A stretch of DNA of 64,000 nucleotides from Burkholderiales bacterium (GCA_035577785.1 DATLUZ010000019.1:1498-65497), one strand, 5' to 3'. Counted from the stretch's first letter, positions 7,927-32,278 are shown. The notes: generated from the sequence alone by a model not told the origin. Made by a program: numbers and translations.

Positions 7927-9116
7927 GGCTTGAGCTTTGTTTCCACGGCCCGGACGAAGAAAGCGGCACCGTACGCCAACGCGGCGTCGTTGAAATCGTA
8001 GCCCGGGTTGTGGACCTCGCAGGCGCCCTCGCCGTCGCCGTTTCCGATGTTGATGTAGCAGCCCGGCACCTCCGCGAGCATGTACGAGAAATCCTCCGAG
8101 GCCATGATGAGCGGCGGGTCGCGCCGCACCTTGTCCGAGCCGACGAGTTCGGCGCAGATCCCGGCGGCGAACTCGGCCGCCGCGGGATCGTTGATGAGCG
8201 GCGGAAAGATCGGACGGAAATCGGTCTTCGCGCCCGCGCCGAAGCCGGCCGCCACGCCCTGCGCGATGCGCGCGAGGTTGCGGCCGATCATCTCCATCAC
8301 CTCGGTTGAAAAAGCCCTCACCGTGCCCGAGAGGCGCGCGCTCTGCGGGATCACATTGTAGGCGTCGCCGGCATGGATCTGCGTCACGGAGACCACCGCG
8401 GTCTCTATGGGGCGCACGTTTCTCGAGACGATGCTCTGGATCGCGGTCGCGATGTGCGCGGCCGCGAGCACAGGATCGATGCCGGACTCCGGCCGCGCGC
8501 CGTGCGCGCCGCGGCCCGCGACGTCGATGTCGAAGAAGGCGCCGCCCGCCATCATGGGCCCGGAGCGCACCGCGAAGCGCCCGAGCCCCATGCCCGGGCG
8601 GTTGTGCATGCCGAAGAGCGCCTCGCACGGGAAGCGGCGGAAGAGGCCGTCCTCGACCATCGCCTTGGCGCCGCCGATCCCTTCCTCGGCGGGCTGGAAG
8701 ATGAAATGCACCGTGCCGTCGAAACCGCGCGTGCGCGCAAGGTGCTGCGCCGCGCCCAGCAGCATCGCGGTGTGGCCGTCATGCCCGCACGCGTGCATCA
8801 CGCCCTCGTTGCGCGAGCGGTAGGCGAACGTGTTCGCTTCCTGGATCGGCAGCGCGTCCATGTCCGCGCGCAGCCCGATGCTCCCTGGCGATTGACCGTT
8901 CTTCAGGACACCCACTACACCTGTCTTGCCGATTCCCCGATGCACCTCGATGCCGAACGACTCGAGCCGCGCCGCCACCAGCTCCGAAGTTCTTTTCTCG
9001 TGGAAGCCGAGCTCCGGATGCGCGTGAATATCGCGCCGCCACTCGCGCATCTCCTCCTGGTTCTCAAAAAAGGGGGCGAGATGAAGGCTATTCAGGACGG
9101 AGTCTGATTGATTCAT
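7914..9116 (-). CDS. M20/M25/M40 amidohydrolase (hippurate hydrolase / N-acyl-amino-acid amidohydrolase type)
   Basis: Real start is MNQSDS at 9116; the upstream part of the 528-aa ORF is Arg-rich junk. Motifs IHAHPELGFHE, MHACGHDGH and IFQPAEEG. Confidence 0.85.
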   Translation of the reverse strand: MNQSDSVLNSLHLAPFFENQEEMREWRRDIHAHPELGFHEKRTSELVAARLESFGIEVHRGIGKTGVVGVLKNGQSPGSIGLRADMDALPIQEANTFAYRSRNEGVMHACGHDGHTAMLLGAAQHLARTRGFDGTVHFIFQPAEEGIGGAKAMVEDGLFRRFPCEALFGMHNRPGMGLGRFAVRSGPMMAGGAFFDIDVAGRGAHGARPESGIDPVLAAAHIATAIQSIVSRNVRPIETAVVSVTQIHAGDAYNVIPQSARLSGTVRAFSTEVMEMIGRNLARIAQGVAAGFGAGAKTDFRPIFPPLINDPAAAEFAAGICAELVGSDKVRRDPPLIMASEDFSYMLAEVPGCYINIGNGDGEGACEVHNPGYDFNDAALAYGAAFFVRAVETKLKPQKR

Positions 9117-14517: not shown

Positions 14518-14721
14518 TCAGAACGCGTCCGGCTGTTCTTCGATGCGGGTCGCCTGATTGATGTGCTGCGCCGGGACGTAGAAGTTTTCGAGGGCCGGCG
14601 TGGGCGTTTGGACGACGGGAAGCGAGGCGTCCGACTGGTATGGCCGCGGCGAGCACGCCGTGACGGAGAGGATGCCCAGGACCAGAATCGCTGCGGGGAT
14701 GGCCAGTTTGATGTTGCGCAT
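14518..14721 (-). CDS. 67-aa lipoprotein with conserved C-terminal tail (tail protein 1)
   Basis: AGGAGA Shine-Dalgarno sequence 7 nt upstream. Signal peptide plus lipobox (ILSVTAC). The tail LENFYVPAQHINQATRIEEQPDAF is repeated in the protein at 20241-20765. Confidence 0.7.
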   Translation of the reverse strand: MRNIKLAIPAAILVLGILSVTACSPRPYQSDASLPVVQTPTPALENFYVPAQHINQATRIEEQPDAF

Positions 14722-14811
14722 GTCGGTCTCCTGTTTTGTGGGTTCGGGTTAACGCGAGGCCAGTATCGCGACCTCTCCCGACGCGATCAGCGCCGCGTTA
14801 CACTGGCTTTT

Positions 14812-14826
14812 TGTGCCGTAATCACA
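14812..14826. promoter_or_regulatory. CRP-type palindrome A: TGTGC-CGTAA-TCACA (extended arms TTTTGTG-N7-CACAAAA, 14809-14829)
   Basis: Lies in the divergent region between tail protein 1 and CRP paralog 1. Same 15-bp architecture as the sites at 15489, 19923 and 20846. Confidence 0.6.
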
Positions 14827-14843
14827 AAATCGCGTCCTGACGC

Positions 14844-15485
14844 ATGCCTCCGGACCAGGCTCCGTTCGCGCATCTCGACGAGCAGGCACTGCGCGGCCTT
14901 GCCCCGGGGGGCGCGGTCAGGTCGTACCCGCGCAACGTCGTGGTGGTGAGCGAAGGCGACCCGACCGACTCGCTGTACGTGGTGTTGTCGGGACGGGTGA
15001 AGGTCTTCGTCGCCGACGAGAACGGCAGGGAGCTCGTCGTCAATACCATCGGCACGGGCGACTACTTCGGCGAGCTGGTGCTGGACGGCCAGGCGCGCGC
15101 GGCTTCCGTCATGACGCTCGAGGCGTCGCGTTTTTTCGTGATTCCGCAGCGCGACGCCGACGCGCTGCTCTCCGGCAACCCTCAGTTCGCGCGGCACCTG
15201 GTGCGCAAGCTCATCGGCAAGGTGCGCTCTCTCACCGAGCAGGTGCGCAACCTCGCGCTGAGGGACGTCTATGCCCGCTTGGTGCGCTTCCTCGAGGAGC
15301 AGGCCGTGGAGGACGGCGGCAGGCGCATTGTGCGCGAGCGCCTCACGCAGGCCGACATCGCTGCGCGGATCGGCGGCTCGCGGGAAATGGTGAGCCGCAT
15401 CCTGAGCGACCTTTCCGCGGGCGGTTACATCCGCGTCGAGGCCAAGCAGATCGTGCTGCTGCGCAAGCTGCCGGCGCACTGGTGA
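14844..15485 (+). CDS. Crp/Fnr-family cyclic-nucleotide-binding transcription factor (CRP paralog 1)
   Basis: cNMP beta-roll (GDYFGELVLDGQARAASV) and C-terminal HTH with CRP-type recognition helix GGSREMVSRIL. No FNR Cys cluster. Confidence 0.85.
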   Translation: MPPDQAPFAHLDEQALRGLAPGGAVRSYPRNVVVVSEGDPTDSLYVVLSGRVKVFVADENGRELVVNTIGTGDYFGELVLDGQARAASVMTLEASRFFVIPQRDADALLSGNPQFARHLVRKLIGKVRSLTEQVRNLALRDVYARLVRFLEEQAVEDGGRRIVRERLTQADIAARIGGSREMVSRILSDLSAGGYIRVEAKQIVLLRKLPAHW

Positions 15486-15488
15486 CGG

Positions 15489-15503
15489 TGTGCATGCGTC
15501 ACA
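15489..15503. promoter_or_regulatory. CRP-type palindrome B: TGTGC-ATGCG-TCACA
   Basis: Starts 4 nt after the CRP1 stop, within a block of about 50 nt conserved with 19921-19970. TAGGGT lies 52 nt downstream of the site centre. The micro-ORF ATG is 89 nt downstream. Confidence 0.6.
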
Positions 15504-15584
15504 GAACTGGCGTGCCGCAGGGCGTCGAGGCCGCGCGCGCCGAGGGCTAGGGTAGCTCCGTCAACTGAACGGAGGAGGTGGCGG

Positions 15585-15770
15585 ATGGATACCCTGGTCG
15601 ATGCGCTCACAATAGCAATGGCGCTTCTGTGCGTGGTCTTTATCGGGTACGGCGCCTGGCTATGCCTGCCGCCGCTTCAGCGTAAGCGGCCCGCCGAGGC
15701 GTCTGCACCCACCTCCGTCAGGAAGCGCGTCCGGTCCATATCGGAGAGGCTTTCGGCAAGCAGCAGGTAG
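15585..15770 (+). CDS. 61-aa single-TM micro-protein (TM unit 1)
   Basis: GGAGGAGG Shine-Dalgarno sequence before the ATG. MDTLVDALTIAMALLCVVFIGYGAWLCL is paralogous to 20035-20166 and to an internal helix of 20241-20765. The 3' 94 nt run antisense into the kinase gene. Confidence 0.5.
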   Translation: MDTLVDALTIAMALLCVVFIGYGAWLCLPPLQRKRPAEASAPTSVRKRVRSISERLSASSR

Positions 15771-17116
15771 AACCGCTCCGACGAGGTCGTCTGGGCGGCC
15801 GCCTTCTTGACCAGGATCTTGGCGATCGGCCCGATGTACGTGGCAAGCCGGCGCTGCGCCGCCTCGATCCGCTCCGCGGTGAGCGCGGCGTCGGTCGGGA
15901 TGCCGGGACGCGGGCCGGTGCCGGAGGCGCGCGGGCCGGTGCCTGACGCGGCGCGCGGCGCGCCGCTGAGCGCGCCGCGCGTCGCCATGAACGCCTTGCG
16001 CTGCTCCTCCGTGTCGAGCTCGCGCGCCATCGTGGCGTAAAGCTCGTCGACGTCGAGCGTACGCCGGCCCGCGCGGCGGACCATCACCTTCGCGACCGGC
16101 CCGACAAAGCGCGCGAGCTGGGTTTCGATCTGCTTGAGGAGCGCGGGGTCCCAGCCCGGCGGCGGCGCGGTGCTGCGTCCCGCGGTCGGCGTGGCGGGGT
16201 TGGAGCCGCTGCCTGGATTGGTGGGCTCGATCTTCGCGGCACGCGGAGCCTCGGAAATGATGGTTTCCTCGGAGAGCGTCGCGCTGACGGGCGCAGCGTG
16301 CGCGTCGAGCAGCGCGCCGAGGAACGCGTTCGCGCTCTCGAAGCGTTCGACCGGCTTCTTGGCGATGGCGCGGGCGATGACGGCGTCGTAGGCGGGCGGG
16401 ACCGGTGGATCGCGGCGCACCTGCGAAGGGGGCAGCGGATTGTCGTGGCAGACCTTGTACGCGGCGGCCTCCACCGAGCCGGCGAAGGGCTTGACGCCGG
16501 TGAGCAGCTCGTACATCACGACGCCGGCGGAGAAGACGTCGGCGCGCCAGTCGATCGTCCCGCCGGTGTAGTGCTCCGGCGCCATGTAGCCCGGCGTGCC
16601 GATGACGAAGCCGGTCTGGGTGAGGTTCGACGAGTCGATCCGCGCGATGCCGAAGTCCGCGATCTTGAGCTTGCCGTTGCGCATCACGATGAGGTTGGCG
16701 GGCTTGATGTCGCGGTGCCAGACGCCCTGCTCGTGCGCGTAGCTGAGCGCTTCGAGAAGCTGGGTCATCGTCGACACGGCGTCGCTCTCCCCGAAGCGCG
16801 TGCCGCGGGCGAAGTATTCGCGCAGGCTGTTGCCCTGGATGAACTCCATCGCAATGTAGGCGAGCCCGTTCTCCTCGCCGTATTCGTGGACCCCGACGAT
16901 GCCTGGGTGCGTGAGGCGCCCGGCCGCCTGCGCCTCGTTCCTGAAGCGCGCGAGCAGGGCCTGGGTGGTGTCCTCCTCGGTCCCGTCCAGGCGGATGGTC
17001 TTGATCGCGACGGTGCGGCGGATGTTGGGGTCGAAGGCCTTGTAGACGACGCCCATGGCGCCGCGGCCGACCACCTCGGTGATCTGGTACTTGCCGATCC
17101 GTTCGATCTGCGCCAT
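15677..17116 (-). CDS. Hanks-type Ser/Thr protein kinase, no TM segment, two tandem C-terminal repeats
   Basis: GRGAMGVVYKA, VAIK, HRDIKPANL, DFGIA and GTPGYMAPE. After a Pro-rich linker there are two units of about 55 aa sharing LAxx[VI]GP[VI]AK[VI][ML]V[RK][RK]A. Confidence 0.9.
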   Translation of the reverse strand: MAQIERIGKYQITEVVGRGAMGVVYKAFDPNIRRTVAIKTIRLDGTEEDTTQALLARFRNEAQAAGRLTHPGIVGVHEYGEENGLAYIAMEFIQGNSLREYFARGTRFGESDAVSTMTQLLEALSYAHEQGVWHRDIKPANLIVMRNGKLKIADFGIARIDSSNLTQTGFVIGTPGYMAPEHYTGGTIDWRADVFSAGVVMYELLTGVKPFAGSVEAAAYKVCHDNPLPPSQVRRDPPVPPAYDAVIARAIAKKPVERFESANAFLGALLDAHAAPVSATLSEETIISEAPRAAKIEPTNPGSGSNPATPTAGRSTAPPPGWDPALLKQIETQLARFVGPVAKVMVRRAGRRTLDVDELYATMARELDTEEQRKAFMATRGALSGAPRAASGTGPRASGTGPRPGIPTDAALTAERIEAAQRRLATYIGPIAKILVKKAAAQTTSSERFYLLLAESLSDMDRTRFLTEVGADASAGRLR

Positions 17117-17123
17117 CCGCGGG

Positions 17124-18023
17124 CTACTCTTCGAGCATCTTCATCGCCTGAGCGACGCTTTTCTTCATGCGGTTGAAGGAGTCGGCGAGCGTGCGGATCT
17201 CGTCCCGGGAGCGCAGATGGAAGTCGGGGACGTCCATGTTGCCCATGCTGACCTGGTCGGCGAGCTTCGCCAGCCGGGACACCGGCATGATGACCATCGA
17301 AAGGAGCATCGCATTGAGGACAATGCCGACGAAGAGGAAGACGCCGGCGAGCGACAGCATGAACGTGCGGAAGACGGTGCGTGCGCGCTGCGTCGGAACT
17401 TCGGTCGGCACCGACACCACCTGCGCACCGATGATTTCGTTCATCTTCCAGCCGAAGCCGTTCGCCGGCCCGTACCGGTCGATCAGCGTCTTCGGCGCGG
17501 CGTCGACGGTGCTGTGGCAGGTCAGGCAGGCGCCGTCGCGTATCTGGATCGGCCTGGCAATGTACAGCAGGCGCCCGGCGGGGGTGTCGCGCTCGCCGAT
17601 GATCTCGGTGCTCTCGGCATTGTTGCGAAACTGGTTGACCACGTCGGTCTCCCAGTCCACCGCGCGGTTGCGCGGATTCGTCGGGTTGAGCGTCGCCTCC
17701 TTGTAGGCGTACTCCGGAAACTTCTTGCGCAGGCCGTTGAAGACTTCGGCGGCGGAGTAGGCAGGCACCGACTGCGGCAGGAAGCCGTATTTCATCTGGG
17801 TCTGGAGCAGGGGGCCGACCTGGCTCGACGTGTAGCTGCGCGTGGCGAGCGCCGCTTCCATGATCAGCCGCGCGCTGTGCTGCATTTCCTCGCGTGCGTT
17901 TTGCTGCAGTAATGCTTCCGCCACGTAGGCCGCGATGCCTAGGCCGAGCAGGAAGACGGCGACGAACACCAGATTGAACTTGACGATCAGTCTCATTTGA
18001 GCTCCAACGTTGCGCTCATTCAT
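17124..18023 (-). CDS. membrane sensor: periplasmic DUF3365 (Tll0287-like, CxxCH heme-c) domain + HAMP, no output domain
   Basis: TM1, then a periplasmic domain of about 190 aa with ACLTCH, then TM2, then HAMP (PVSRLAKLADQVSMGN...IRTLADSFNRM), then the stop. It ends 7 nt before the kinase start. An alternative start exists at 17996. Confidence 0.75.
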   Translation of the reverse strand: MNERNVGAQMRLIVKFNLVFVAVFLLGLGIAAYVAEALLQQNAREEMQHSARLIMEAALATRSYTSSQVGPLLQTQMKYGFLPQSVPAYSAAEVFNGLRKKFPEYAYKEATLNPTNPRNRAVDWETDVVNQFRNNAESTEIIGERDTPAGRLLYIARPIQIRDGACLTCHSTVDAAPKTLIDRYGPANGFGWKMNEIIGAQVVSVPTEVPTQRARTVFRTFMLSLAGVFLFVGIVLNAMLLSMVIMPVSRLAKLADQVSMGNMDVPDFHLRSRDEIRTLADSFNRMKKSVAQAMKMLEE

Positions 18024-18948
18024 TCGGCCTTGCGGGCGTCGCCTCGGCTGCAGTCGGCGGTGCTTTTGCCGCGTCCACCAAGGGCGGGGGCTTGGGCAGG
18101 TGCTTCTCCGGGAAGAGGATCGGGTCCCATTCGGGATGGAACCGCAGGTTGGCGATAAGCGCCTTGCGAAACTCGGGGTCCTGCGCCCGGGCGCGCATGC
18201 GCTGCATCAGCGGGCGACGCAGCTCCGGCGGGCCTTTCAGCCAAGGCTCGACCTCCTCGTAGGTGAGGTCTCCGAGCCGACGCGGCGACACGTCCCGGTC
18301 CTTGAACGCGGCCAGCCGCTCGGGCAGGTTGTCGCGGTAGTAAGGTGGCATGGCCGCAACAAAGGCCGGCGCCGGACGCGGCTGGAGGACGCCCCTCTGG
18401 TCGGCCCGGCGCATATAAAACTGGCCCGCGCCGACCGCGACCGGACTGGCCGGAGTCGCCCGAACGAAGCCCTCGGCGAGCCGCAGGGCGCCGCTCTCGA
18501 CGAACAGGCTGGCTTCAGCGCTCTCGACGTGCAGCACGAGCACCCCGTCGGCGCTGCCGAAGCCGAAGAGCGGCGTGGTGACGCGCAGCGGCGCCGCCTT
18601 CGGGGCGAGAGCGAGCTTGGTCCAGCCCTGCAGCAGGTAAAAGTCCGAGACCGCCGCCGCCTTGGCGCCTCGGCCGGTGGCGCCGGCGAGCGCGGCCACG
18701 TGGAACCGACTCCGCGGCCCGAGGCTCACCCGCGCGCCATCGGCGAACGCGATCTGAACCAGCCCCTTGTCCGGCACCTCGACGATGTCGCCGACGTGCA
18801 TGCGCACGCCTTCGGCCAAAGCGAACCGGCCGGTAGCGCGCAGCAGAGCGGCGGGCCCCTCCACCAGCGTGACAACCGGTGGCGCTTCGGCGCCCATCGC
18901 GAGCATAGGAACCACCAGGCAAGCCGCCGCAAATGCCCCCGCAAGCAT
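18016..18948 (-). CDS. periplasmic FecR-domain protein
   Basis: Start at MLAGAF (18948) gives a signal peptide; the ORF extends to 19005. FecR-like pattern VTLVEGPAALLRATGRFALAEGVRMHVGDIVEVPDKGLVQIAFADGARVSL. 8-nt overlap with the next gene. Confidence 0.7.
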   Translation of the reverse strand: MLAGAFAAACLVVPMLAMGAEAPPVVTLVEGPAALLRATGRFALAEGVRMHVGDIVEVPDKGLVQIAFADGARVSLGPRSRFHVAALAGATGRGAKAAAVSDFYLLQGWTKLALAPKAAPLRVTTPLFGFGSADGVLVLHVESAEASLFVESGALRLAEGFVRATPASPVAVGAGQFYMRRADQRGVLQPRPAPAFVAAMPPYYRDNLPERLAAFKDRDVSPRRLGDLTYEEVEPWLKGPPELRRPLMQRMRARAQDPEFRKALIANLRFHPEWDPILFPEKHLPKPPPLVDAAKAPPTAAEATPARPNE

Positions 18949-19022
18949 TGAGCTCGGCGCCCTTTCTAGAATTCCGGGCGATACTATTCCGCGCGATCCA
19001 TTCACGTCAATTTGTCAGCGCC

Positions 19023-19904
19023 ATGTCAGAGCCGTTTTCCTGCGCGGTACTGTTTGCCGATATCAGCGGTAGCACTCGGCTGTACGAGGAGCTCGGAGAC
19101 GCCCAGGCGCTCTCCCGGATCGACCGCTGCCTGCGCCTTCTGCGCGATGCCGCCTTGGAATTCGACGGACGCGTAGTTAAGACGACGGGTGATGGCGTCA
19201 TGTGCTCCTTCGAGCAGGCAGAGTCCGCGCTGCAGGCGGCGCGGTTCATGCAGACGCGGCTGGCCGAGCAGGCGGCGCTCGGCGGCCCGTCCCTCGCCAT
19301 CCACGTTGGCTGCCATTACGGATCGGTGCTCGAGAACGGCGGCGACCTCTACGGCGACTGTGTGAACGTCGCCGTGCGCGTGGTCGGCCTGGCCAAGCCG
19401 GGTCAGGTCATAGCGACCCAGGAGGTGGTCGGCAGGATCGGCGAGAGCCTGCGAGGCAGGGTCCGCGTGCTCGACCACGTGGCCCTGAAGGGAAAGCGCG
19501 AGCCGCTGCAGATCTACGAGCTTTCGTGGCAGGATTCCGAGGAGCTGACCACCGTGGGTACCCGCCTGCAGGAGGCGCCGTCCCGCCTCAAGCTGGTGTT
19601 CGGAAGCCGGGAGATGTGGTTCGACGCGGCCGGGGGGAACGACCTCAGGCTTGGGCGCGACGCGGCGTGCGACATCGTGATCGTGGACCGCCGGGTGTCG
19701 CGGCAGCATGCCCGCATCGAGAAGCGCCGCGACAAGTTCATGCTCATCGACCAGAGCGCTAACGGAACCTACGTTGCCGTGAACGGGGAGTCCGAGATCT
19801 GCCTGCGGCGCGAAGAGCTGGTTCTGCGCGCGAGCGGACGCATCTGCATCGGCCACCGCACCGGCGACGCCGACGCTATCGTGGTGGAGTTCTATTGCCT
19901 GTAA
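19023..19904 (+). CDS. class III adenylate/guanylate cyclase fused to a C-terminal FHA domain
   Basis: Cyclase motifs: VLFADISGST and VKTTGDG (metal Asp residues, Lys), GDLYGDCVNVAVR (Asp, Asn, Arg). FHA motifs: LRLGRD...VSRQHARI...IDQSANGTYVNG-type. Confidence 0.85.
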   Translation: MSEPFSCAVLFADISGSTRLYEELGDAQALSRIDRCLRLLRDAALEFDGRVVKTTGDGVMCSFEQAESALQAARFMQTRLAEQAALGGPSLAIHVGCHYGSVLENGGDLYGDCVNVAVRVVGLAKPGQVIATQEVVGRIGESLRGRVRVLDHVALKGKREPLQIYELSWQDSEELTTVGTRLQEAPSRLKLVFGSREMWFDAAGGNDLRLGRDAACDIVIVDRRVSRQHARIEKRRDKFMLIDQSANGTYVAVNGESEICLRREELVLRASGRICIGHRTGDADAIVVEFYCL

Positions 19905-19922
19905 TACGCGCACCTGCCGGGG

Positions 19923-19937
19923 TGTGCATACGGCACA
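19923..19937. promoter_or_regulatory. CRP-type palindrome C: TGTGC-ATACG-GCACA
   Basis: Perfect 5-bp arms, 19 nt after the cyclase stop. TAAAGT lies 52 nt downstream of the centre, the same spacing as at site B. Confidence 0.6.
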
Positions 19938-20034
19938 GAACCGCAGTGCCTTGCGGCGTCGAGGTCCGCCCCGGTCGGACCTAAAGTGGTCTGCGACGGG
20001 CGGCACCCGCCCCCGCAGCCACCGAGGAGGTTCC

Positions 20035-20166
20035 ATGGACGCACTGGTGCTCGACATCGCTGTTCGTATCCTGTCCGGACTCTGCATGGCCCTGCTTATC
20101 TGGGGCGGATGGCTTTCCATCCGCGGCACCCCGCGCTGGACGGCCGGCGCCACGGTCCAGAGCTGA
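20035..20166 (+). CDS. 43-aa single-TM micro-protein (TM unit 2)
   Basis: GAGGAGG Shine-Dalgarno sequence before ATG 20035. MDALVLDIAVRILSGLCMALLIWGGWLSI is paralogous to 15585-15770. The upstream part of the listed 80-aa ORF is Arg-rich and unlikely to be coding. Confidence 0.55.
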   Translation: MDALVLDIAVRILSGLCMALLIWGGWLSIRGTPRWTAGATVQS

Positions 20167-20240
20167 GGCTCTCCCCCTACTTTCCCCGCCGCCTGGCAAG
20201 ACCCTGGGCCGGGCCGAGCGCCCGCAGAAACCGCCGGCGC

Positions 20241-20765
20241 TCAGAACGCATCCGGCTGTTCCTCGACGCGCGTCGCCTGGTTGGCGTGCTGTGCCGGGAC
20301 GTAGAACTTCTCCAGCGCCGGCGCCGTCGGCGCGGGATTCTCGCTCTGCGTCACCTGCTCGCGGCTCGGCTGGTGCGCGAAAGTCGCGCCCAGGACCGCG
20401 CCGAGCGACACGAGCGCCACGGCCGCGGCCGCGAGCGCGATGCCACGCTTCAAGCTCCAGAATTGACTGGCTGCGGTTCCCTGACCGATGCCGTGACGAT
20501 GTTTGCCGATTCTCATGACGACCTCCTGTAGCGTGCGAACGACGACGAGATACGCCCCGTACGCGAGAAGCGCAGCGGAGCAGATTTCCAGGACACGGAC
20601 CGCGAGGTCCAGCAATTCGGGCAGCCATTCCGTGGTGCTCGCGGCCATCTGCTGGAGCGCGATCCCGCTCCCGTCGGCAAAGACCTCGGCGCGAGCGTGC
20701 GAGCACGGCATCAGGGCCGCGGCGAGCGCGCCGCGGCTCAATCGCAGGACTTGGATGCGGTTCAT
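20241..20765 (-). CDS. 174-aa membrane protein: TM-unit-like helix fused to tail protein (tail protein 2)
   Basis: Start MNRIQV at 20765 with a GGAAGG Shine-Dalgarno sequence. The internal helix LLDLAVRVLEICSAALLAYGAYL matches the micro-proteins. A second TM follows, then the tail LEKFYVPAQHANQATRVEEQPDAF. Confidence 0.65.
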   Translation of the reverse strand: MNRIQVLRLSRGALAAALMPCSHARAEVFADGSGIALQQMAASTTEWLPELLDLAVRVLEICSAALLAYGAYLVVVRTLQEVVMRIGKHRHGIGQGTAASQFWSLKRGIALAAAAVALVSLGAVLGATFAHQPSREQVTQSENPAPTAPALEKFYVPAQHANQATRVEEQPDAF

Positions 20766-20845
20766 GTGGGCCCCTTCCGTGAAACTCTCGGGCCCAGTGT
20801 GCGCAAGCCGGGCGTCCGGTTCAGCGTCGCGTCGCACCCGATTCA

Positions 20846-20860
20846 TGTGAACTAATCACA
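20846..20860. promoter_or_regulatory. CRP-type palindrome D: TGTGA-ACTAA-TCACA
   Basis: Lies in the divergent region between tail protein 2 and CRP paralog 2. Its half-sites match the canonical CRP half-sites. Confidence 0.6.
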
Positions 20861-20919: not shown

Positions 20920-21573
20920 ATGCAGGCATCGAAGCCGAAAGAGCCGTCGCCCTGCGACGTCCTGAGCGACGCCGAGCTCAAGGCGCTGTCCGAGCGCGCG
21001 ATCATGCGCGCGTTCGCGAAGAACACGGTGATCGTGAGCGAGGGCGACCGGGCCGATTCGCTCTACATCGTCCTTTCCGGCCGTGTCCGGGCCTACGTGA
21101 GCGACGACCAGGGCAAGGAGATGTTCCTCAGCGAGGCGGGCAAGGGCGAGTATTTCGGCGAAATGGCGCTCGACGAGGGGCCGCGCTCGGCCTCCGTGAT
21201 CACGCTCGAGCCGACCCGGCTTCTGGTCGTGCCGAAAGACGATTTCGCGGCCTTCCTCGCGAAGAGCCCCGAGTTCGCGCTGCACCTCGTGCGCAAGCTG
21301 ATCCGCCGGGTGCGCGCGCTCACCCACGACGTCAAGAGCCTGGCGCTCATGGACGTCTACGGCCGCGTGGCGCGCATGCTCCTCGATCTCGCCGTCGAGC
21401 GCGACGGCGCGCTCGTGATCGAGGACCGGCCGACGCAGCAGGAAATGGCGAACCGGGTCGGCGCTTCGCGCGAGATGATCAGCCGGATCCTCACCGAGCT
21501 GGCCGCCGGCGGCTACATCGAGGTCGCCCGGGACCGCATCACCATCTCCCGCACTTTGCCGTGCGGCTGGTGA
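20920..21573 (+). CDS. Crp/Fnr-family cyclic-nucleotide-binding transcription factor (CRP paralog 2)
   Basis: GEYFGEMALDEGPRSASV (canonical Glu...Arg-Ser cNMP contacts) and recognition helix GASREMISRIL. Clear paralog of 14844-15485. Confidence 0.85.
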   Translation: MQASKPKEPSPCDVLSDAELKALSERAIMRAFAKNTVIVSEGDRADSLYIVLSGRVRAYVSDDQGKEMFLSEAGKGEYFGEMALDEGPRSASVITLEPTRLLVVPKDDFAAFLAKSPEFALHLVRKLIRRVRALTHDVKSLALMDVYGRVARMLLDLAVERDGALVIEDRPTQQEMANRVGASREMISRILTELAAGGYIEVARDRITISRTLPCGW

Positions 21574-21590
21574 AGCTAAGATAGCCGGGC

Positions 21591-22166
21591 GTGCGTCTGT
21601 TCATCAAAAACAGGACCTTCGGGGGAGAAGGCCCGGCCGGGGGGAAGCTCAACCTCCGGCTGTCCGGTTTCGCCGCGCAGCAGATCGTCCCGGTTGACGA
21701 CATCGTGCGGGCCATCGACCGGCTTCCGGATTTTCATCTCGAGGGTCTGCGCGAGATCGCCTATCTGCCCGAATACGCCCCGGACGTGCGCGCCTACCCC
21801 GCCTACCCGCGCTGTGCGCCGCAGGGCGAGTTCGTTCAGTCGGAGAGGCGCATTTTCGTCTACGGGTTCGACCGTCCCGCGATGTTCTTCCATATGCTGC
21901 ATCACGAGATCGGCCATTTCGTGTTCTTTCTGGTGCTCGGCAGCCGCATGAAGAAGCAGTGGGTCACGCAGCTCTTCCCGGAGTCCACTTGCGTGACGGC
22001 GTACGCCGGCAGGAATCCCTGGGAGGACTTCGCGGAGAGCTACGCTTACTACGTGCTCCAGCCTCGGCTTCTCGAGAGGAAGCTGCCCGAAAAGCACGCC
22101 TTCATGCGCGAGTGCGTCTTCTCCGGAGAGGCGTGGGCGCTCAAGGAAAGCGATCGCCTGGGATAA
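21591..22166 (+). CDS. HExxH metallopeptidase-like protein (MtfA/M90-like motif arrangement)
   Basis: GTG start 17 nt after the CRP2 stop. MLHHEIGHFVF plus a downstream NPWEDFAESYAYY. No signal peptide. Confidence 0.5.
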   Translation: MRLFIKNRTFGGEGPAGGKLNLRLSGFAAQQIVPVDDIVRAIDRLPDFHLEGLREIAYLPEYAPDVRAYPAYPRCAPQGEFVQSERRIFVYGFDRPAMFFHMLHHEIGHFVFFLVLGSRMKKQWVTQLFPESTCVTAYAGRNPWEDFAESYAYYVLQPRLLERKLPEKHAFMRECVFSGEAWALKESDRLG

Positions 22167-22197
22167 ACTTGCCCCGAGCGTTCGAGGAGGAGCTTCG

Positions 22198-27775: not shown

Positions 27776-28084
27776 ATGTGGGAAGGCGCCGCGATTGTTC
27801 TCATCGCCGCAGGGCTATTGCTTTGGGCCGACAGCCTGAAGGCCCGCGAACGCGCCGTGCGCGCCGGGCGCTCGGCCTGCGAGCGCTATCAGCTCCAGTT
27901 TCTCGATGACACGGTGTCCTTCGCCCGCATGCGCCTTGGGCGCAACCACGACGGAGAGCTGCGCATCGCCCGGACCTACACGTTCGAGTTCTCCGACACC
28001 GGCAACAACCGGCGCCAGGGCGCGATCGTGATGCTCGGCGGCGAGGTGCAGGACCTTCATCTGGAGCCCTATCCGGTCCAATGA
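27776..28084 (+). CDS. small membrane-anchored protein, DUF3301-like
   Basis: One N-terminal TM helix, 102 aa. The stop overlaps the fpr start (ATGA). The family call is from memory only. Confidence 0.5.
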   Translation: MWEGAAIVLIAAGLLLWADSLKARERAVRAGRSACERYQLQFLDDTVSFARMRLGRNHDGELRIARTYTFEFSDTGNNRRQGAIVMLGGEVQDLHLEPYPVQ

Positions 28085-28824
28085 GCGCATGGCTTGAAGG
28101 CGAAATCGTCGAAAACCGGCACTGGACCGATGCATTGTTCTCCCTTCGCGTGCAGGGAGCAGCGCTCTCCTTCCAAGCCGGCCAGTTCGTGCGCATCGCG
28201 CTCGATATCGACGGCGAGCGGGTGGCGCGCGCCTTCTCGATGGTGAGCGCGCCGGGGGAGCCGCTGCTCGAGTTCTACGGCATCGTGGTGCCCGAGGGGC
28301 CGCTTTCGCCGCGGCTCGCGCGCCTGAAGCCGGGCGAGCGGCTCTTCGTCGCCTCCAATCCGGCCGGCTTTCTCGTCCTCTCCGAGCTTCCGGACGCCGA
28401 GACGCTCTGGCTCATGGCCACCGGCACCGGGATCGCGCCGTTCGTGTCCATGCTCCGCGCCGACACCCCCTGGCAGCGGTTCGAGAACGTCGTCCTGGTC
28501 CATGCGGTTCGGCATGCGCAGGAGCTCGTCTATCGCGACGATGTCGAGCGGGCCCGGGTGACGCACGGCGCGCGCTTCCGGTATGTCCCCATAGTGAGCC
28601 GGGAAGACGCGGCTCACGCGCTGCGCGGTCGCATCCCCGCGCTGCTCCGCGACGCCCGCCTCGAAGGCGCGGCGGGCCTCAAGCTTGCTCCGGCGGATTC
28701 CCAGGTCATGCTGTGCGGCAATCCCGACATGCTGAAGGACACGAGCGCGGCGCTCGCCGAGCGCGGCCTGCGCAAGAACCGGCGCCGCTCGCCGGGCCAG
28801 ATCACGGTGGAGAGCTTTTGGTGA
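28081..28824 (+). CDS. fpr: ferredoxin--NADP(+) reductase
   Basis: RAFSMVS (FAD RxYS-type motif), GPLSPRL, MATGTGIAPF (NADP), C-terminal ITVESFW. Confidence 0.85.
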   Translation: MSAWLEGEIVENRHWTDALFSLRVQGAALSFQAGQFVRIALDIDGERVARAFSMVSAPGEPLLEFYGIVVPEGPLSPRLARLKPGERLFVASNPAGFLVLSELPDAETLWLMATGTGIAPFVSMLRADTPWQRFENVVLVHAVRHAQELVYRDDVERARVTHGARFRYVPIVSREDAAHALRGRIPALLRDARLEGAAGLKLAPADSQVMLCGNPDMLKDTSAALAERGLRKNRRRSPGQITVESFW

Positions 28825-29681
28825 AGGCCGTGACGAAAGTCACGGGCGCGCTGGCGCTGGCGTGGCTGCTGGCCGGCTGCACCGCGCTGCGGCTCGCCTA
28901 CGACAACGCCGACACTTATCTCCATTTCCGGGCGCAGAGCTATCTCGACCTCGACGCGAAGGGCTCGGACGAGCTCGACGCGCGCATGGGCGAGTTCTTC
29001 TCCTGGCACAGGCGCGCCGCGCTGCCGCAGTACGCGCGCGTTTCAGACGAGGCGGCCAAGCGCTTGGCGAAAGGACTCTCGCGCGAGGACGTGGTTTGGG
29101 GTTACGATTCCCTGGTGGCGCACGCGCGGCAAAGCCTGCGCTACGCCGCCGAGCGCGTGGCACCGCTGCTCGATCGCCTGACGCCGCAGCAGGTCGCGCA
29201 CATGGAGAGGCGGTTCGCGGACGACAACCGCAAGTTCGCGCGCGAGTACCTGCGCGGAAGCGAAGCCGAGCGGCGCAAGCGCCGCGCCAAGCGGTGGGAG
29301 CAGAGGCTGGAGGACTGGGTGGGGAACCTGTCGCCGGTTCAGGCGGAAAAAGTCAGGCAGTTTTCCGAGCGCGCGCCGCTCTACGACGAGATGCGCGCAA
29401 AAGACCGCCAGCGCATGCAAACCGAGTTCGTCGACATGATCCGCAAGCGCGAAGCGCAGAAGCGCCTGCCCGACTGGATCGCCAACTGGGAGCGCGGCCG
29501 GGACCCGGCGTACGCCTCCGCGAGCGAGCGCTTCCACCAGGAGTTCCTGACGCTGATCCAGGAGCTCGACAAGACGCTCGCACCCGAGCAGCGCAACCGG
29601 GCGGTTGCCAACTTCCGGCGCTACGCCGAGGACTTCAGCGTTCTGGCGCGCCGCGCGCGCGCCGAGCCGCCCCGAAAGTGA
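28821..29681 (+). CDS. lipoprotein, DUF6279-like
   Basis: GTG 28821 overlaps the fpr stop. Lipobox LLAGC. Helical, Arg/Glu-rich body. Confidence 0.6.
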   Translation: MKAVTKVTGALALAWLLAGCTALRLAYDNADTYLHFRAQSYLDLDAKGSDELDARMGEFFSWHRRAALPQYARVSDEAAKRLAKGLSREDVVWGYDSLVAHARQSLRYAAERVAPLLDRLTPQQVAHMERRFADDNRKFAREYLRGSEAERRKRRAKRWEQRLEDWVGNLSPVQAEKVRQFSERAPLYDEMRAKDRQRMQTEFVDMIRKREAQKRLPDWIANWERGRDPAYASASERFHQEFLTLIQELDKTLAPEQRNRAVANFRRYAEDFSVLARRARAEPPRK

Positions 29682-32278
29682 CCGAGACCGCCCCGCTGCG
29701 CGGCGCCCCCGACCGTTCCCAGGGTGCCGAGTCGCCGCCGGCTGGCTACGCCGGCCGCACGCGCTACACCCAGCTCGAGTACGACGCGCTGCTCGCCAAT
29801 CTCTCGATCGGCATCGCGTTCACGCGCGAGCGCCGCTTCTTCCTGTGCAACGCCCGCTTCGCCGCGATGCTCGGCTACGAGCCCGACGAGCTCATCGGCC
29901 ATCCCGGCGAGCTCATCTGCGCGAGCCCGGAGAGCTATGCGGCGCTTGGGGAGATCGCCGGGCCGCTGATCTCGGGCGGCGGCCAGCTCGACGTCGAATG
30001 GGAGCTCAGGCGCAAGGACGGCTCGACGTTCGTCGCGCGCCTGATCGCGAAGTCCCTCGATCCCGCGAGCCCGCAGCAAGGCACGGTGTGGATCGTCGAG
30101 GACATCACCGACAGGCGGCGCGACGCCGACGAGCTCGCGCGGCTCCTGCGCGAACAGGAAGCGATCCTCGCCACCGCCTCGATCGGCATCGTGTTCATCA
30201 GGGACCGGCGCATCGTGCGCTGCAACCGGCGCTACGAGGAGATGTACGGCTACGGCCCGGGCGAGCTCGAGGGCAAGCCCACCGCGGTGCTGTACACCGA
30301 CATTTCGGAGCACGCGAAAGCGAGCGCAGTCTACGAGCCGCTGGCGCGCGGCGAGACCTCGCGCCGCGTCGAGCTGCGCCGGCGCAAGGACGGGACCGCG
30401 TTCTGGGGCCGCGTCGAGGGCCGCGCGGTCGATCCGCTCGATCCGCACCGCGGCTCGGTGTGGATCGTGGAGGACGTCACCGAGCGCCGCCGCGCCGAGG
30501 AGGACCTCCGGCGGCTGGTGCGCGAGCAGCACGAGAGCGAAGAGCGCGTGCAGCGCGCGCTCGGCGAGCAGGAGCTGATCCTCGACAATGCGGCCGTAGG
30601 CATCGCCTTCGTGCGCGCGCGCGAGATCCAGCGCTGCAACCGCTTCCTCGAGGAGATGGTCGGCGCGGAGCCGGGCGAGCTCGTTGGAAAGAGCTCGGCG
30701 GTGCTGTTCGCAGCGCAGGCGGACTGGGAGGAAGCAGGCCGGCGCGCCTATCAGCACACCGCGCCGGGCGAGACCCACGACGCGGAGTGGCTCTTCAGGC
30801 GCCGCGACGGCTCGACCTTCCGCTGCCGCACCCGCGGCCGGCGCATCGATCTCGGCGAGTCCGAGCAGGAGTGGATCTGGAGCCTGGAGGACGTGACCGT
30901 CGAGCACGCGGCGCGCGAATGGCTGCAGTCCTCGCGCGACGCGCTGGAGCGCGCCGTGGCCGAGCGCACCGCCGAGCTGCGGGAAGCCAATGCGCGCGCG
31001 CGGCACCTCGCCGACCACGACGCGCTCACCGGGCTGCCGAACCGCAGGCTGCTGGAGGACCGTCTTACACAGGCGCTCGCGCTCTCGTACCGCAACCGCA
31101 AGCAGACCGCGGTGATGTTCGTCGACCTCGACCGCTTCAAGGCGGTCAACGACTTGCTCGGCCACGCGGCGGGCGACATCCTGCTGAAGGAGGTCGCCCA
31201 GCGCCTGGTCAGGCAGCTGCGCGTGGGCGACACCATCTGCCGCATCGGCGGCGACGAGTTCGTGGTGGTGCTCCCCGAGCTGAAGCGCGCCGCGGACGCC
31301 GCGCAGGTCGCCCGCAAGGTGCTCGAGCAGCTTTCGCAGCCGCTGATGGTCGAGGAGCGCGAGCTCATCGTCACGCCGTCGATCGGCATCGCGGTGTTCC
31401 CCGACGACGGGCGCGACGCCGAGACGCTGATCCGCAACTCCGACGCCGCGATGTACCACGCCAAGGAGCTGGGGCGCGCCAACTACCAGTTCTTCACCGC
31501 CGAGATGAACCAGGCGGCATCGCGCCGGCTCGCCCTGGAGGCCGACCTGCGGCGCGCGCTCGGAAGGGACGAGCTGCGCGTGTTCTATCAGCCGATCGTC
31601 GATGCCAGGACCGGCCTCGTCGCCGCCCACGAGGCGCTCGCGCGCTGGCAGCACCCCGAGCGCGGACTCGTCGAGCCCGGCGAGTTCATCCAGCTCGCCG
31701 AGGAGAGCGGCATGATCCTCAAGCTCGGCGAATGGGTGCTGCGCCAGGCGTGCCGCTGGGCCACCTTCATCGGCGTGGAGCGGGGGCTGCCGGTCTCGGT
31801 GAACCTGTCGCCGCGCCAGTTCAACGATCCCAAGCTCGTGCACACGGTCGCCGCCGCGCTGCGCGAAACCGGGCTGCCGGCGCGCCTCTTGCAGCTCGAG
31901 ATCACCGAAACCACCGCCATGCAGCACACCGACGTCACCCTCGCCACCCTCAACCGCCTGAAGGCGCTCGGTGTGTCGATCGCCATAGACGATTTCGGCA
32001 CCGGCTACTCGAGCCTCTCGTATCTGAAGCGCTTCCCGGTGGACCTCCTGAAGATCGACCGCTCGTTCACCACCGAGCTGCCCGCGGACGCCGACCAGTG
32101 CGCGATCGTGTCCGCCATCGTCGCGCTGGCGCACGCACTCGAGCTGCAGGTAATCGCCGAAGGCGTGGAAAACGCGGAGCAGCGCGAGTTTCTCGCGAGC
32201 TGCGGCTGCGACTTCATCCAGGGTCATCTCACCGGCGCGCCGCTCGATGCCGACGCCGCGGCGAAGGATTTCGTCTAG
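29678..32278 (+). CDS. PAS/PAC x3 - GGDEF - EAL cyclic-di-GMP signalling protein
   Basis: GTG 29678 overlaps the upstream stop. Three PAS repeats (…WIVEDITDRRR, WIVEDVTERRR, WSLEDVT). RIGGDEFVV. EAL motifs HEALARW, QLEITE, DDFGTGYSSL and EGVE. Confidence 0.9.
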   Translation: MTETAPLRGAPDRSQGAESPPAGYAGRTRYTQLEYDALLANLSIGIAFTRERRFFLCNARFAAMLGYEPDELIGHPGELICASPESYAALGEIAGPLISGGGQLDVEWELRRKDGSTFVARLIAKSLDPASPQQGTVWIVEDITDRRRDADELARLLREQEAILATASIGIVFIRDRRIVRCNRRYEEMYGYGPGELEGKPTAVLYTDISEHAKASAVYEPLARGETSRRVELRRRKDGTAFWGRVEGRAVDPLDPHRGSVWIVEDVTERRRAEEDLRRLVREQHESEERVQRALGEQELILDNAAVGIAFVRAREIQRCNRFLEEMVGAEPGELVGKSSAVLFAAQADWEEAGRRAYQHTAPGETHDAEWLFRRRDGSTFRCRTRGRRIDLGESEQEWIWSLEDVTVEHAAREWLQSSRDALERAVAERTAELREANARARHLADHDALTGLPNRRLLEDRLTQALALSYRNRKQTAVMFVDLDRFKAVNDLLGHAAGDILLKEVAQRLVRQLRVGDTICRIGGDEFVVVLPELKRAADAAQVARKVLEQLSQPLMVEERELIVTPSIGIAVFPDDGRDAETLIRNSDAAMYHAKELGRANYQFFTAEMNQAASRRLALEADLRRALGRDELRVFYQPIVDARTGLVAAHEALARWQHPERGLVEPGEFIQLAEESGMILKLGEWVLRQACRWATFIGVERGLPVSVNLSPRQFNDPKLVHTVAAALRETGLPARLLQLEITETTAMQHTDVTLATLNRLKALGVSIAIDDFGTGYSSLSYLKRFPVDLLKIDRSFTTELPADADQCAIVSAIVALAHALELQVIAEGVENAEQREFLASCGCDFIQGHLTGAPLDADAAAKDFV

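Follow-up and report, generated by a model that had tools for sequence, protein, structure and literature searches.

Operators of FNR-type proteins are 14 bp long, and none of the characterised CRP/FNR proteins is known to use an odd-length operator. The consensus of E. coli CAP (CRP) has an A-rich distal flank (AAATGTGA), and in the lac promoter the centre of the CRP site lies 49.5 nt before the -10 element. The operator that serves as the yardstick for CRP is a 16-bp palindrome, TGTGA-N6-TCACA (PMC5449483), and the motifs of Rv3676, Cmr and GlxR are 16-bp CRP-type sites as well (PMC5758884, PMC5449483). Mycobacterium tuberculosis possesses two CRP-family paralogs with overlapping recognition motifs (PMC5758884). 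The Crp-like regulator Clr of Sinorhizobium meliloti also binds a 16-bp palindrome, GTNNCNNNNGNNAC / TGTTN8AACA (PMC10127613, PMC5498481), and at Clr-activated promoters the site-to-start distances range from -42 to -76 (PMC10127613, PMC5498481, PMC4222275).

Here we analyse four palindromes of the form TGTG-N7-CACA in a 64-kb stretch of DNA from a Burkholderiales bacterium (the window), which lie near genes for two CRP-family regulators, CRP1 and CRP2. These regulators share with E. coli CRP the two-domain build (cNMP-binding and helix-turn-helix) and the equivalents of R180, E181 and R185, and the sites share the TGTG/CACA arms and the A-rich distal flank. As in class I promoters such as lac P1, a weak -35 element follows the site, which would be centred roughly at -60 to -65. 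The putative operator is, however, not of the even length (16 or 14 bp) expected of CRP-type recognition. All four sites are 15 bp long and their dyad axis falls on a base pair, so that each GTG is 0.5 bp nearer the centre than in the 16-bp site of E. coli CRP and the half-sites are one bp closer together than is known for its characterised relatives. Moreover, the proposed regulon would be local, whereas that of E. coli CRP is global. Clr resembles the present system in being supplied by dedicated class III cyclases (CyaD1, CyaD2, CyaK) and in activating few genes, some of unknown function, with smc02178 as a target. In contrast to Clr, there are two paralogous regulators here, a pair as in M. 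tuberculosis, the cyclase bears an FHA domain and adjoins a Ser/Thr kinase operon, and the targets would be the tiny membrane proteins of the X and Y types.

A signalling island with four odd-length palindromes

Every TGTG-N7-CACA match of the window falls into a 6-kb signalling island that carries, besides the two CRP paralogs, the operon of a Ser/Thr kinase, the gene of an adenylate cyclase with an FHA domain and the genes X1, X2, Y1 and Y2:

14518-14721, minus strand: X1, predicted lipoprotein of 67 aa with a VTAC lipobox; predicted target of site A
14812-14826, palindrome: site A, TGTGCCGTAATCACA, in the divergent X1/CRP1 intergenic region; 19.7 bits
14844-15485, plus strand: CRP1, 213 aa, cNMP-binding domain and Crp-type helix-turn-helix
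15489-15503, palindrome: site B, TGTGCATGCGTCACA, upstream of Y1, starting 4 nt past the stop codon of CRP1; 18.1 bits
15585-15770, plus strand: Y1, single-helix membrane protein of 61 aa; predicted target of site B
15677-19005, minus strand: sensor operon of three genes
15677-17116, minus strand: Hanks-type Ser/Thr kinase of the sensor operon
17124-18023, minus strand: Tll0287-like protein with HAMP, sensor operon
18016-19005, minus strand: FecR-like ORF of the sensor operon, start uncertain
19023-19904, plus strand: class III adenylate cyclase with C-terminal FHA domain; presumed effector source
19923-19937, palindrome: site C, TGTGCATACGGCACA, upstream of Y2, 19 nt past the stop codon of the cyclase gene; 18.5 bits
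20035-20166, plus strand: Y2, single-helix membrane protein of 43 aa; predicted target of site C
20241-20765, minus strand: X2, membrane protein of 174 aa; predicted target of site D
20846-20860, palindrome: site D, TGTGAACTAATCACA, in the divergent X2/CRP2 intergenic region; 23.0 bits
20920-21573, plus strand: CRP2, 217 aa, 48% identical to CRP1

The coordinates and letters that a sequence-only reading had given for the four 15-mers are all correct. Four matches stand against 0.28 expected in 64 kb, and none of 100 dinucleotide-preserving shuffles of the window gave as many as four; since A/D and B/C are paralogous pairs from local duplication, such within-window statistics overstate the independence of the sites. 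Among TGTG-Nk-CACA patterns with k = 2-13, the window holds nothing besides N7 except for a trivial N9 overlap at site D and an N12 match at 8453. When the 64 kb were scanned with a matrix built from orthologous sites, the four sites scored 18-23 bits and the runner-up position 9.3 bits; with the matrix recast as a 14-mer or a 16-mer, nothing comparable came up. In this sense the earlier notion of a private regulon holds within the window, but in one related MAG an X-Y operon with its site and the gene of the regulator are on separate contigs.

X1 and X2 had been taken for tail-protein genes. They actually encode a lipoprotein and a membrane protein without any phage-family match, and a phage origin of the window was rejected, its context being a soil Burkholderiales chromosome without tail genes. 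X1, with the C-terminal motif FYVPAQHxNQATRxEEQPDAF, belongs to a family without a Pfam domain, which numbers more than 350 'hypothetical' proteins; in X2, a transmembrane segment resembling that of the Y proteins is joined to an X-like C-terminus, and the 3' end of Y1 overlaps the convergent kinase gene. Apart from CRP1 and CRP2, the conserved island encodes no further DNA-binding proteins.

The regulators and their presumed effector

The N-terminal cyclic-nucleotide-binding domain (PF00027) is recognised with E values of 7e-22 in CRP1 and 1e-26 in CRP2, and the C-terminal Crp-type helix-turn-helix by PF13545 and PF00325, above the cut-offs in both. The two proteins match solved CRP structures over their full length. 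The closest solved relatives of CRP2 are M. tuberculosis CRP, GlxR, E. coli CAP, Vfr and Clr (structure 7pza); the best-scoring ones, M. tuberculosis CRP (Rv3676; E ~4e-28), Cmr and Corynebacterium GlxR, are homologues and not orthologues in view of their low identity to CRP1/CRP2. Judged by sequence, CRP1 and CRP2 are members of the cAMP-CRP clade.

The residues for cNMP binding and DNA recognition are intact. Both paralogs carry the recognition helix R-E-M-[V/I]-S-R, as had been pointed out before, and in the clade the helix reads S-R-E-M-[VI]-[SN]-[RK] with invariant R and E. The equivalents of CAP E72, R82, R180 and E181 are likewise invariant, and that of R185 is R or K; in CAP, R180, E181 and R185 read the GTG of a half-site. 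In the phosphate-binding cassette, G-E and R do not vary within the clade; at the position that follows (CAP S83), CRP2 has S and CRP1 has A, which gives RAA as in protein kinase A. The positions of the adenine-contacting CAP residues T127/S128 hold L/T, not T/S. Compared with CAP, the phosphate-binding loop is shorter by 2 residues and the AR1-equivalent loop (CAP 156-164) by 3, the sequence of the latter not being conserved. AR1 (activating region 1) is the part of a class I activator that touches the C-terminal domain of the RNA polymerase alpha subunit. For the cyclase, the motifs FADISGST, VKTTGDG and GDLYGDCVNVAVR, with ATP-type K/D residues, suggest specificity for ATP.

The 15-bp site follows one CRP clade

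In orthologous contigs from 4 MAGs, sites A, B and C retain their arms, and spacer and flanks differ. At site A the arms are constant and the spacer letters variable in 4 orthologous contigs; at site C a perfect palindrome is found in 4/4, with the centre changed from AC to TT and unrelated 5' flanks. The orthologs of site D are degenerate (...CACG, TGTGAACTAGTTACG, TGTCAACTATTCACG).

For a broader comparison, loci were fetched by protein similarity alone, without use of the motif. In twelve close relatives (at least 50% identity), 12 palindromes had the N7 spacer and not one had N4-N6, N8 or N9, whereas around 69 distant CRP relatives (at most 43% identity) N7 palindromes occur in background numbers and none adjoins the gene. 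In 80 further betaproteobacterial loci of the clade we counted 47 N7 palindromes, as against 1-8 for each of N4-N6 and N8-N10; 43 of the 47 lie within 250 nt of a CRP-clade gene and none inside one. When all 4-Nk-4 palindromes (k = 0-12) were ranked blindly in the 250 nt downstream of the clade genes, TGTG-N7-CACA came first, with 33 of 80 regions. The association of the sites with this CRP clade is exclusive. The odd 15-bp spacing, which had been remarked upon before, is thus genuine and clade-wide, with no N6 or N8 version in the window and background numbers of both among the clade loci.

Promoter architecture

When oriented, all four sites lie upstream of an X or Y gene and share an ungapped layout, consisting of the palindrome, N8, GTG, N6, GRCGYYGA, N19 and a -10-like hexamer:

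14762-14767, minus strand: predicted -10 of the X1 promoter, GATACT (site A)
14786-14803, minus strand: conserved block equivalent to that of site B (site A)
15512-15529, plus strand: conserved block that separates site B from the -10, comprising GTG, 8 nt past the palindrome, and, at the -35 position, the box GGCGTCGAG
15525-15530: -35 position of the Y1 promoter at 17-bp spacing, TCGAGG
15548-15553, plus strand: predicted -10 of the Y1 promoter, TAGGGT (site B)
19946-19963, plus strand: equivalent conserved block (site C)
19982-19987, plus strand: predicted -10 of the Y2 promoter, TAAAGT, in orthologs TAGAGT (site C)
20796-20801, minus strand: predicted -10 of the X2 promoter, CACACT, weak (site D)
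20820-20837, minus strand: equivalent conserved block (site D)

The hexamers named in the earlier reading are all present, and each starts 52 nt from the centre of its own site, which in turn lies 29 nt before the -35 position. At the X1 promoter, GATACTGGCCTCG is kept in orthologs. The block common to B and C, previously put at about 38 of 50, is identical at 37 of 50 positions. Between the A/D and B/C promoter classes the similarity is modest (24-30 of 70 ungapped positions against a random mean of 19.8, sd 4.1). Stacked without gaps, 31 clade promoters yield the consensus aaTGTG.AT..g.CACA-N7-tGtG-...-TA.agT with a fixed hexamer offset; hexamer positions 1, 2 and 6 are T, A and T in at least 80% each, the constant 52 nt applies to most of the promoters, and the four promoters of the window fit the frame without gaps. 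The GTG of the conserved block resembles a third half-site.

The -10 elements of the X and Y promoters conform to TAnnnT or NAnnnT and the -35 elements match at 3/6 positions. A strict sigma-70 consensus scan misses these promoters, which are too weak, yet the sensor operon, which has no palindrome, possesses a near-consensus sigma-70 promoter (19010-18983). Weakness of this kind is expected of activator-dependent promoters. As to the class I geometry proposed earlier, the fixed 52 nt to the -10-like hexamer stands; the geometry itself is approximate. Class I sites are centred near -61.5, or one or more helical turns further upstream. Here the centre would lie at about -64 if transcription starts 7 nt past the hexamer, and 52 nt instead of the 49.5 nt of lac places the site some 2.5-3.5 bp off the canonical class I register; the AR1-equivalent loop is shortened in addition.

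Alternative explanations

The GTG and the GRCGYYGA box are two conserved extras that a single dimer leaves unaccounted for. It is conceivable, albeit unlikely, that the CRP paralogs bind the sites chiefly to repress, or as part of a more elaborate assembly, such as two dimers or a CRP1/CRP2 hetero-complex on the palindrome plus a third TGTG half-site 7 nt downstream. A second binding centre would then lie near -42, over the -35 box, and A and D could be mainly autoregulatory operators of CRP1 and CRP2. Such an arrangement would fit the half-site-like tG(t/c)G found at a fixed 7-8 nt past the palindrome in most clade promoters, the occurrence of CACA-N7-TGTG in 18 of the 80 loci fetched by protein similarity, the strong conservation of the -35-position box and the identical recognition residues of the two paralogs. 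Some relatives have two tandem sites 51 nt apart, and in locus L015 a site adjoins the cyclase start codon. Furthermore, 17 nt separate the end of site A from the CRP1 ATG that follows it, and a possible TACACT -10 lies just upstream; occupation of the site could therefore block transcription of CRP1. Nevertheless, the 31 stacked promoters contain no matching right arm that would complete a second palindrome, the weak -35 and -10 elements fit activation better than repression, and the constant distance to the -10 is the pattern of an activator contacting RNA polymerase.

Another transcription factor, encoded elsewhere, might bind the palindromes and make the CRP link indirect; LysR-type sites typically are 15-bp interrupted palindromes (T-N11-A) near -65. 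The 4-N7-4 layout, the position near -64/-65 and the second conserved element over the -35 resemble such sites, and an odd-length operator lacks precedent among CRP/FNR proteins. We regard this possibility as quite improbable, since tblastn with Pfam-confirmed LysR-type queries found no such gene in the window or in 88 related loci, all island genes belong to other families, and the motif tracks this CRP clade and disappears in distant CRP relatives. In addition, the TGTG/CACA arms are what CAP R180, E181 and R185, conserved here, read, and the A-rich distal flank is that of the CAP consensus. It is scarcely credible that the palindromes are no protein operators at all, but passive remnants of duplication or RNA hairpins or terminators after the CRP1 and cyclase genes. 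The two loci are indeed duplicates, and B and C closely follow stop codons; but arms, spacing and position are kept across a clade of 50-96% protein identity in which the flanks diverge, and A and D are not downstream of genes. As RNA, each site would fold into a stem of only 4 bp around a 7-nt loop, without a U-tract; a terminator scan did not call them, and Rfam gave no family match.

A putative cAMP-responsive circuit

The initial proposal that the palindromes are putative operators tied to the local CRP paralogs is supported by enrichment, conservation and clade association. From comparative genomics, i.e. the N7 sites near clade genes, the top-ranked motif and the constant hexamer distance, the reading as CRP operators is well supported. 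With a probability of about 0.72, they would be operators of CRP1/CRP2 dimers that activate genes for small membrane proteins and lipoproteins. What we infer is that the proteins bind the sites, that they activate and do not repress, that cAMP is the effector and that the kinase is linked to the cyclase.

Dimers of the locally encoded regulators would thus occupy the four palindromes, CRP1 being the more likely binder; CRP2 probably binds too, as it has the same recognition residues. Each site would be centred some 64 bp ahead of the start predicted for the weak sigma-70 promoter of X1 (site A), Y1, Y2 or X2, from where the liganded regulator would activate these genes in a class I-like position. 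Sites A and D adjoin the CRP1 and CRP2 genes, and by this proximity (25 nt from the centre of A to the CRP1 ATG, as noted earlier) A may also serve autoregulation, as possibly does D. The ligand is probably cAMP from the adjacent FHA-domain adenylate cyclase, and this enzyme could plausibly be controlled by the FecR-like/Tll0287-HAMP/Ser-Thr-kinase operon via binding of phosphothreonine to the FHA domain.

Four 15-bp palindromes in an island with two CRP genes

The proposal that four interrupted palindromes form a CRP-type regulon in this region rests on a real observation, and its core interpretation is probably correct; the comparative support now goes considerably beyond that of the original, sequence-only reading. 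On re-examination, the four TGTG-N7-CACA 15-mers (sites A-D) were found exactly where they had been placed. The pattern occurs four times in the window against 0.28 expected, a count that none of 100 dinucleotide-preserving shuffles reached. When the spacer was varied (TGTG-Nk-CACA, k = 2-13), the window gave no further match apart from an N9 overlap of trivial kind at site D and a single N12 match elsewhere. A matrix derived from orthologous sites gives sites A-D 18-23 bits, with the runner-up position in the 64 kb at 9.3 bits; 14-mer and 16-mer versions found nothing comparable there. The label 'private' thus holds within the 64-kb window, but the confidence placed in it was an error. The top match of the 16-mer control matrix (12.9 bits) is a 16-bp palindrome, CGTGACGAAAGTCACG (CGTGAC-N4-GTCACG), at 28829-28844, within the narrow interval that separates ORF 28081-28824 from ORF 28862-32278; it may be the operator of another regulator.

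The DNA of the window is chromosomal (65-72% G+C), its nearest relatives are uncultured Burkholderiales bins, and no phage-like features were found in it. The island is arranged as follows, with X1, X2, Y1 and Y2 being small membrane proteins or lipoproteins and the predicted targets of sites A, D, B and C, respectively:

FadB-like gene, minus strand, first in island order
14518-14721, minus strand, X1, a 67-aa lipoprotein
14812-14826, site A, between X1 and CRP1
14844-15485, CRP1
15489-15503, site B, between CRP1 and Y1
15585-15770, plus strand, Y1, a 61-aa single-helix protein
after Y1, all on the minus strand, a Ser/Thr kinase, a Tll0287-like protein with HAMP domain and a FecR-like protein
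19023-19904, class III adenylate cyclase with FHA domain
19923-19937, site C, between the cyclase gene and Y2
20035-20166, Y2, 43 aa
20241-20765, minus strand, X2
20846-20860, site D, between X2 and CRP2
20920-21573, CRP2

X1 and X2 had been taken for tail-protein genes, yet neither has a Pfam or PHROG tail match; they have a C-terminal motif in common. CRP1 and CRP2 are 48% identical. The region of site A aligns with that of site D, and the region of site B with that of site C (37/50 identical positions in the B/C block). The four sites thus derive from two ancestral promoters and, contrary to what had been implied, did not arise independently of one another. The distance of 25 nt from the centre of site A to the CRP1 ATG was reproduced, and the proximity of A and D to the CRP genes suggests possible autoregulation of CRP1 and CRP2.

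Y1 (plus strand) and the kinase gene, which converge, share about 94 nt at their 3′ ends (15677-15770), and the tail of Y1 in this overlap, RKRVRSISERLSASSR, is kept in orthologs. In the related locus L004 the N-terminal part of Y1 is absent and site B has a mismatch. About 590 bp separate CRP2 from the AMP-ligase gene (21574-22197), compared with 34 nt in the closest relative, L001; the stretch holds an ORF of 191 aa (21591-22166, plus strand) in which a weak motif of zinc-metallopeptidase type (Peptidase_Mx, E 3e-5) scores below the cut-off. Gene order differs among lineages: some contigs (L221, L223) read CRP1, site, Y2, AMP-ligase and lack the kinase/cyclase module, CRP2 precedes CRP1 in L003 and L004, and L008 has CRP2 only, plus a degenerate D-type site.

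The 15-bp site accompanies a clade of CRP genes

A comparison of orthologous intergenic regions, as had been proposed, showed that the arms of sites A, B and C are intact or carry one mismatch in four orthologous contigs, with differing spacer letters and flanks. This is seen best at site C, where TGTGCATACGGCACA gives way to TGTGCATTTGGCACA and the 5′ flanks are unrelated; site D decays. For the decisive tests, loci were fetched by protein similarity only, and sets selected by pattern were excluded from judging the conservation of imposed positions. Twelve loci of at least 50% identity contained 12 palindromes with the N7 spacer, while N4-N6, N8 and N9 did not occur. Among 69 loci of distant CRP relatives (at most 43%), palindromes occurred in background numbers, none beside the gene. 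A profile search then supplied 80 further betaproteobacterial loci, drawn from at least 548 relatives, which held 47 N7 sites compared with one to eight for each other spacer; 34 of the 47 lie downstream and nine upstream of a gene of this CRP clade, in each case at no more than 250 nt, and the gene itself contains none. When all 4-Nk-4 palindromes (k = 0-12) were ranked blindly, TGTG-N7-CACA came first in the downstream regions (33/80), whereas GC-rich patterns topped the control DNA.

Scanning the collections with the full promoter pattern gave real genome matches exclusively in Burkholderiales loci with CRP1, X and Y genes, and about 43 of 46 metagenome contigs were real. Most genome matches were rejected as coding coincidences in cytochrome oxidase subunit I of Alphaproteobacteria; a conserved stretch of this gene, WAHHMYTVGMDVD, matches the 40-nt promoter pattern in many of these bacteria and dominated the match list of the genome scan (loci L086-L187). 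Other members of the clade have the site ahead of X-family or Y-like genes, an AlgH-like/DyP pair (Pfam-confirmed) and, judging by N-terminal sequences, putative ABC substrate-binding-like proteins. An informative exception is bin JBAVOG01, in which the contig of a site-bearing operon with X-like and Y-like genes (L185) is not the one that holds the CRP gene (L243). This arrangement indicates that the regulator can work in trans, with X and Y as its conserved predicted targets.

More than 350 proteins belong to the X family, every one of them 'hypothetical' and devoid of a Pfam domain. In X2 (20241-20765) an X-like anchor and the C-terminal motif come after a transmembrane segment of Y type, LLDLAVRVLEICSAALLAYGAYLVV, so that the protein looks like a fusion. 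Together with the joint operon of L185, this suggests that X and Y act together. Two further arrangements were seen in relatives: in several (L256, L259, L262, L264, L266) an X-family gene is preceded by tandem sites about 51 nt apart, and in L015 a perfect site, TGTGGAATATTCACA (9008-9022), stops 2 nt short of an adenylate cyclase ATG.

Predicted promoter architecture

With A and D reverse-complemented, all four regions read towards an X or Y gene and align without gaps: the palindrome is followed by 8 nt, GTG, 6 nt, G(G/A)CG(T/C)(C/T)GA, 19 nt and a hexamer. The hexamers named earlier (TAGGGT at B, TAAAGT at C, GATACT at A, CACACT at D) and their 52-nt offsets are correct. If the spacer is taken as 17 bp, the −35 hexamers are TCGAGG, TCGAGG, CTGATC and CTGAAC, with 3/6 matches each. 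Between the A/D and B/C classes, ungapped identity is 24-30/70 against a random mean of 19.8 (sd 4.1), and the window evidence alone would point only weakly to a common design. Among the relatives, 31 promoters could be stacked without gaps, giving the consensus aaTGTG.AT..g.CACA-N7-tGtG.c....g.Cg..Ga-N18-gccTA.agT, in which the hexamer's T, A and T are each conserved to 80% or more, at an offset identical to that in the window.

A strict sigma-70 scan called none of the four X/Y promoters. The same scan did call a near-consensus promoter, without a palindrome, for the sensor-kinase operon, which is the pattern expected if the X/Y genes, and not the sensor genes, need an activator. This promoter (TTGACG-16-AATAGT, 18983-19010, minus strand) serves the FecR-like/Tll0287-HAMP/Ser-Thr-kinase operon, divergent from the cyclase gene; with a promoter here, the start of the FecR-like protein must lie downstream of the GTG at 19005, e.g. 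at the ATG at 18948.

In the lac promoter the centre of the CRP site lies 49.5 nt before the −10 and about 25.5 nt before the −35 element. The corresponding distances in the predicted X/Y promoters are 52 and 29 nt, so that the geometry, assigned earlier with too much confidence, is class I-like but not canonical. On the best reading, a liganded CRP dimer would sit about 64 bp upstream of weak sigma-70 promoters and activate them from this upstream position. A single dimer leaves the conserved third half-site and the −35 box unexplained; these may mark a second, weaker binding centre near −42.

The regulator and alternative explanations

In CAP, recognition residues of the R180/E181/R185 type read TGTG/CACA arms. 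Both paralogs indeed carry the R-E-M-x-S-R recognition helix, and alignment of the clade with CAP shows E72, R82, R180 and E181 to be invariant and R185 to be R or K. Compared with CAP, the clade lacks two residues in the phosphate-binding loop and three in the AR1 loop, has L/T where CAP has T127/S128, and carries an LPxHW extension at the C-terminus. Among proteins of solved structure, CRP2 is closest to M. tuberculosis CRP, GlxR, CAP, T. thermophilus CRP, Vfr and Clr.

Of the rival readings, a LysR-type regulator weighs most, as the sites of this family are also 15-bp interrupted palindromes near −65. However, with Pfam-validated queries neither the window nor any of 88 related loci yielded a linked LysR-type gene, and this reading was rejected; no other DNA-binding proteins were found encoded in the island. 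An ECF-sigma promoter (GAAC-N15-CGTC after B and C) fails on its short spacing and on a GAAC that is not kept in orthologs. The TGGCAC in site C recalls a sigma-54 promoter, yet its GG-to-GC spacing is N9, not N10, and it occurs in C-type sites only. Class II geometry would call for a −10-like hexamer about 30 nt from the site centres, where there is none. A hairpin or terminator in the RNA was also dismissed, with a stem of only 4 bp, no U-tract, no call in the terminator scan and no Rfam match, as were structured leaders with anti-Shine-Dalgarno pairing, whose folds are no better than those of shuffles (z +1.4 to −1.3). The Y2 leader (...TCCGTCGGGCGGCAACCCGCCACCCGCAGAACCGGAGGAGG, 19988-20034; L188-L233) is highly conserved, and its first part resembles X-family leaders. 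Its predicted GGGCGG/CCGCCC hairpin has invariant pairs, none of them covarying, and likewise folds no better than shuffles.

Recognition by the CRP-type paralogs would entail an operator of odd length. FNR-type sites are 14 bp long, and in 16-bp and 14-bp sites alike 4.5 bp separate the key G:C from the dyad; here, in contrast, the distance is 4.0 bp, and the dyad passes through a base pair. We know of no earlier CRP/FNR-family lineage with an odd-length operator. Text searches of a paper library found neither a 15-bp or odd-spaced Crp/Fnr operator nor a match to this gene combination. The characterised CRP-type site, TGTGA-N6-TCACA, spans 16 bp (PMC5449483), as does the Clr site GTNNCNNNNGNNAC (PMC10127613). 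The closest functional analogue is the cyclase-Clr-smc02178 module of S. meliloti (PMC5498481, PMC4222275, PMC10127613).

A putative cAMP loop and its implications

By motif reading, the cyclase has putative ATP-type residues, and its FHA domain, encoded beside a Hanks-type kinase operon, suggests phosphothreonine control of the cyclase. In a joint reading, to which we would give roughly one chance in five, an entire CRP subfamily of the Betaproteobacteria, with 548 or more relatives in genome bins, has moved to operators of 15 bp whose dyad falls on a base pair, so that the dimer-DNA geometry would be unlike that of every solved CRP/FNR complex, possibly with the third half-site recruiting a second dimer or the paralog. 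The tiny exported X/Y targets may then feed back on the sensor leading from FecR/Tll0287/Ser-Thr-kinase to the FHA-cyclase, which would make a self-contained cAMP loop.

If binding is confirmed, the clade would be a natural experiment on the range of half-site spacings open to the CAP fold, and N6-based matrices would miss whole regulons. X and Y, two unannotated families of very small membrane proteins, are assigned their first, predicted regulatory context. The compact module, widespread in uncultured soil Betaproteobacteria, brings together signalling by a Hanks-type kinase, an adenylate cyclase with FHA domain and transcription control of the CRP type.
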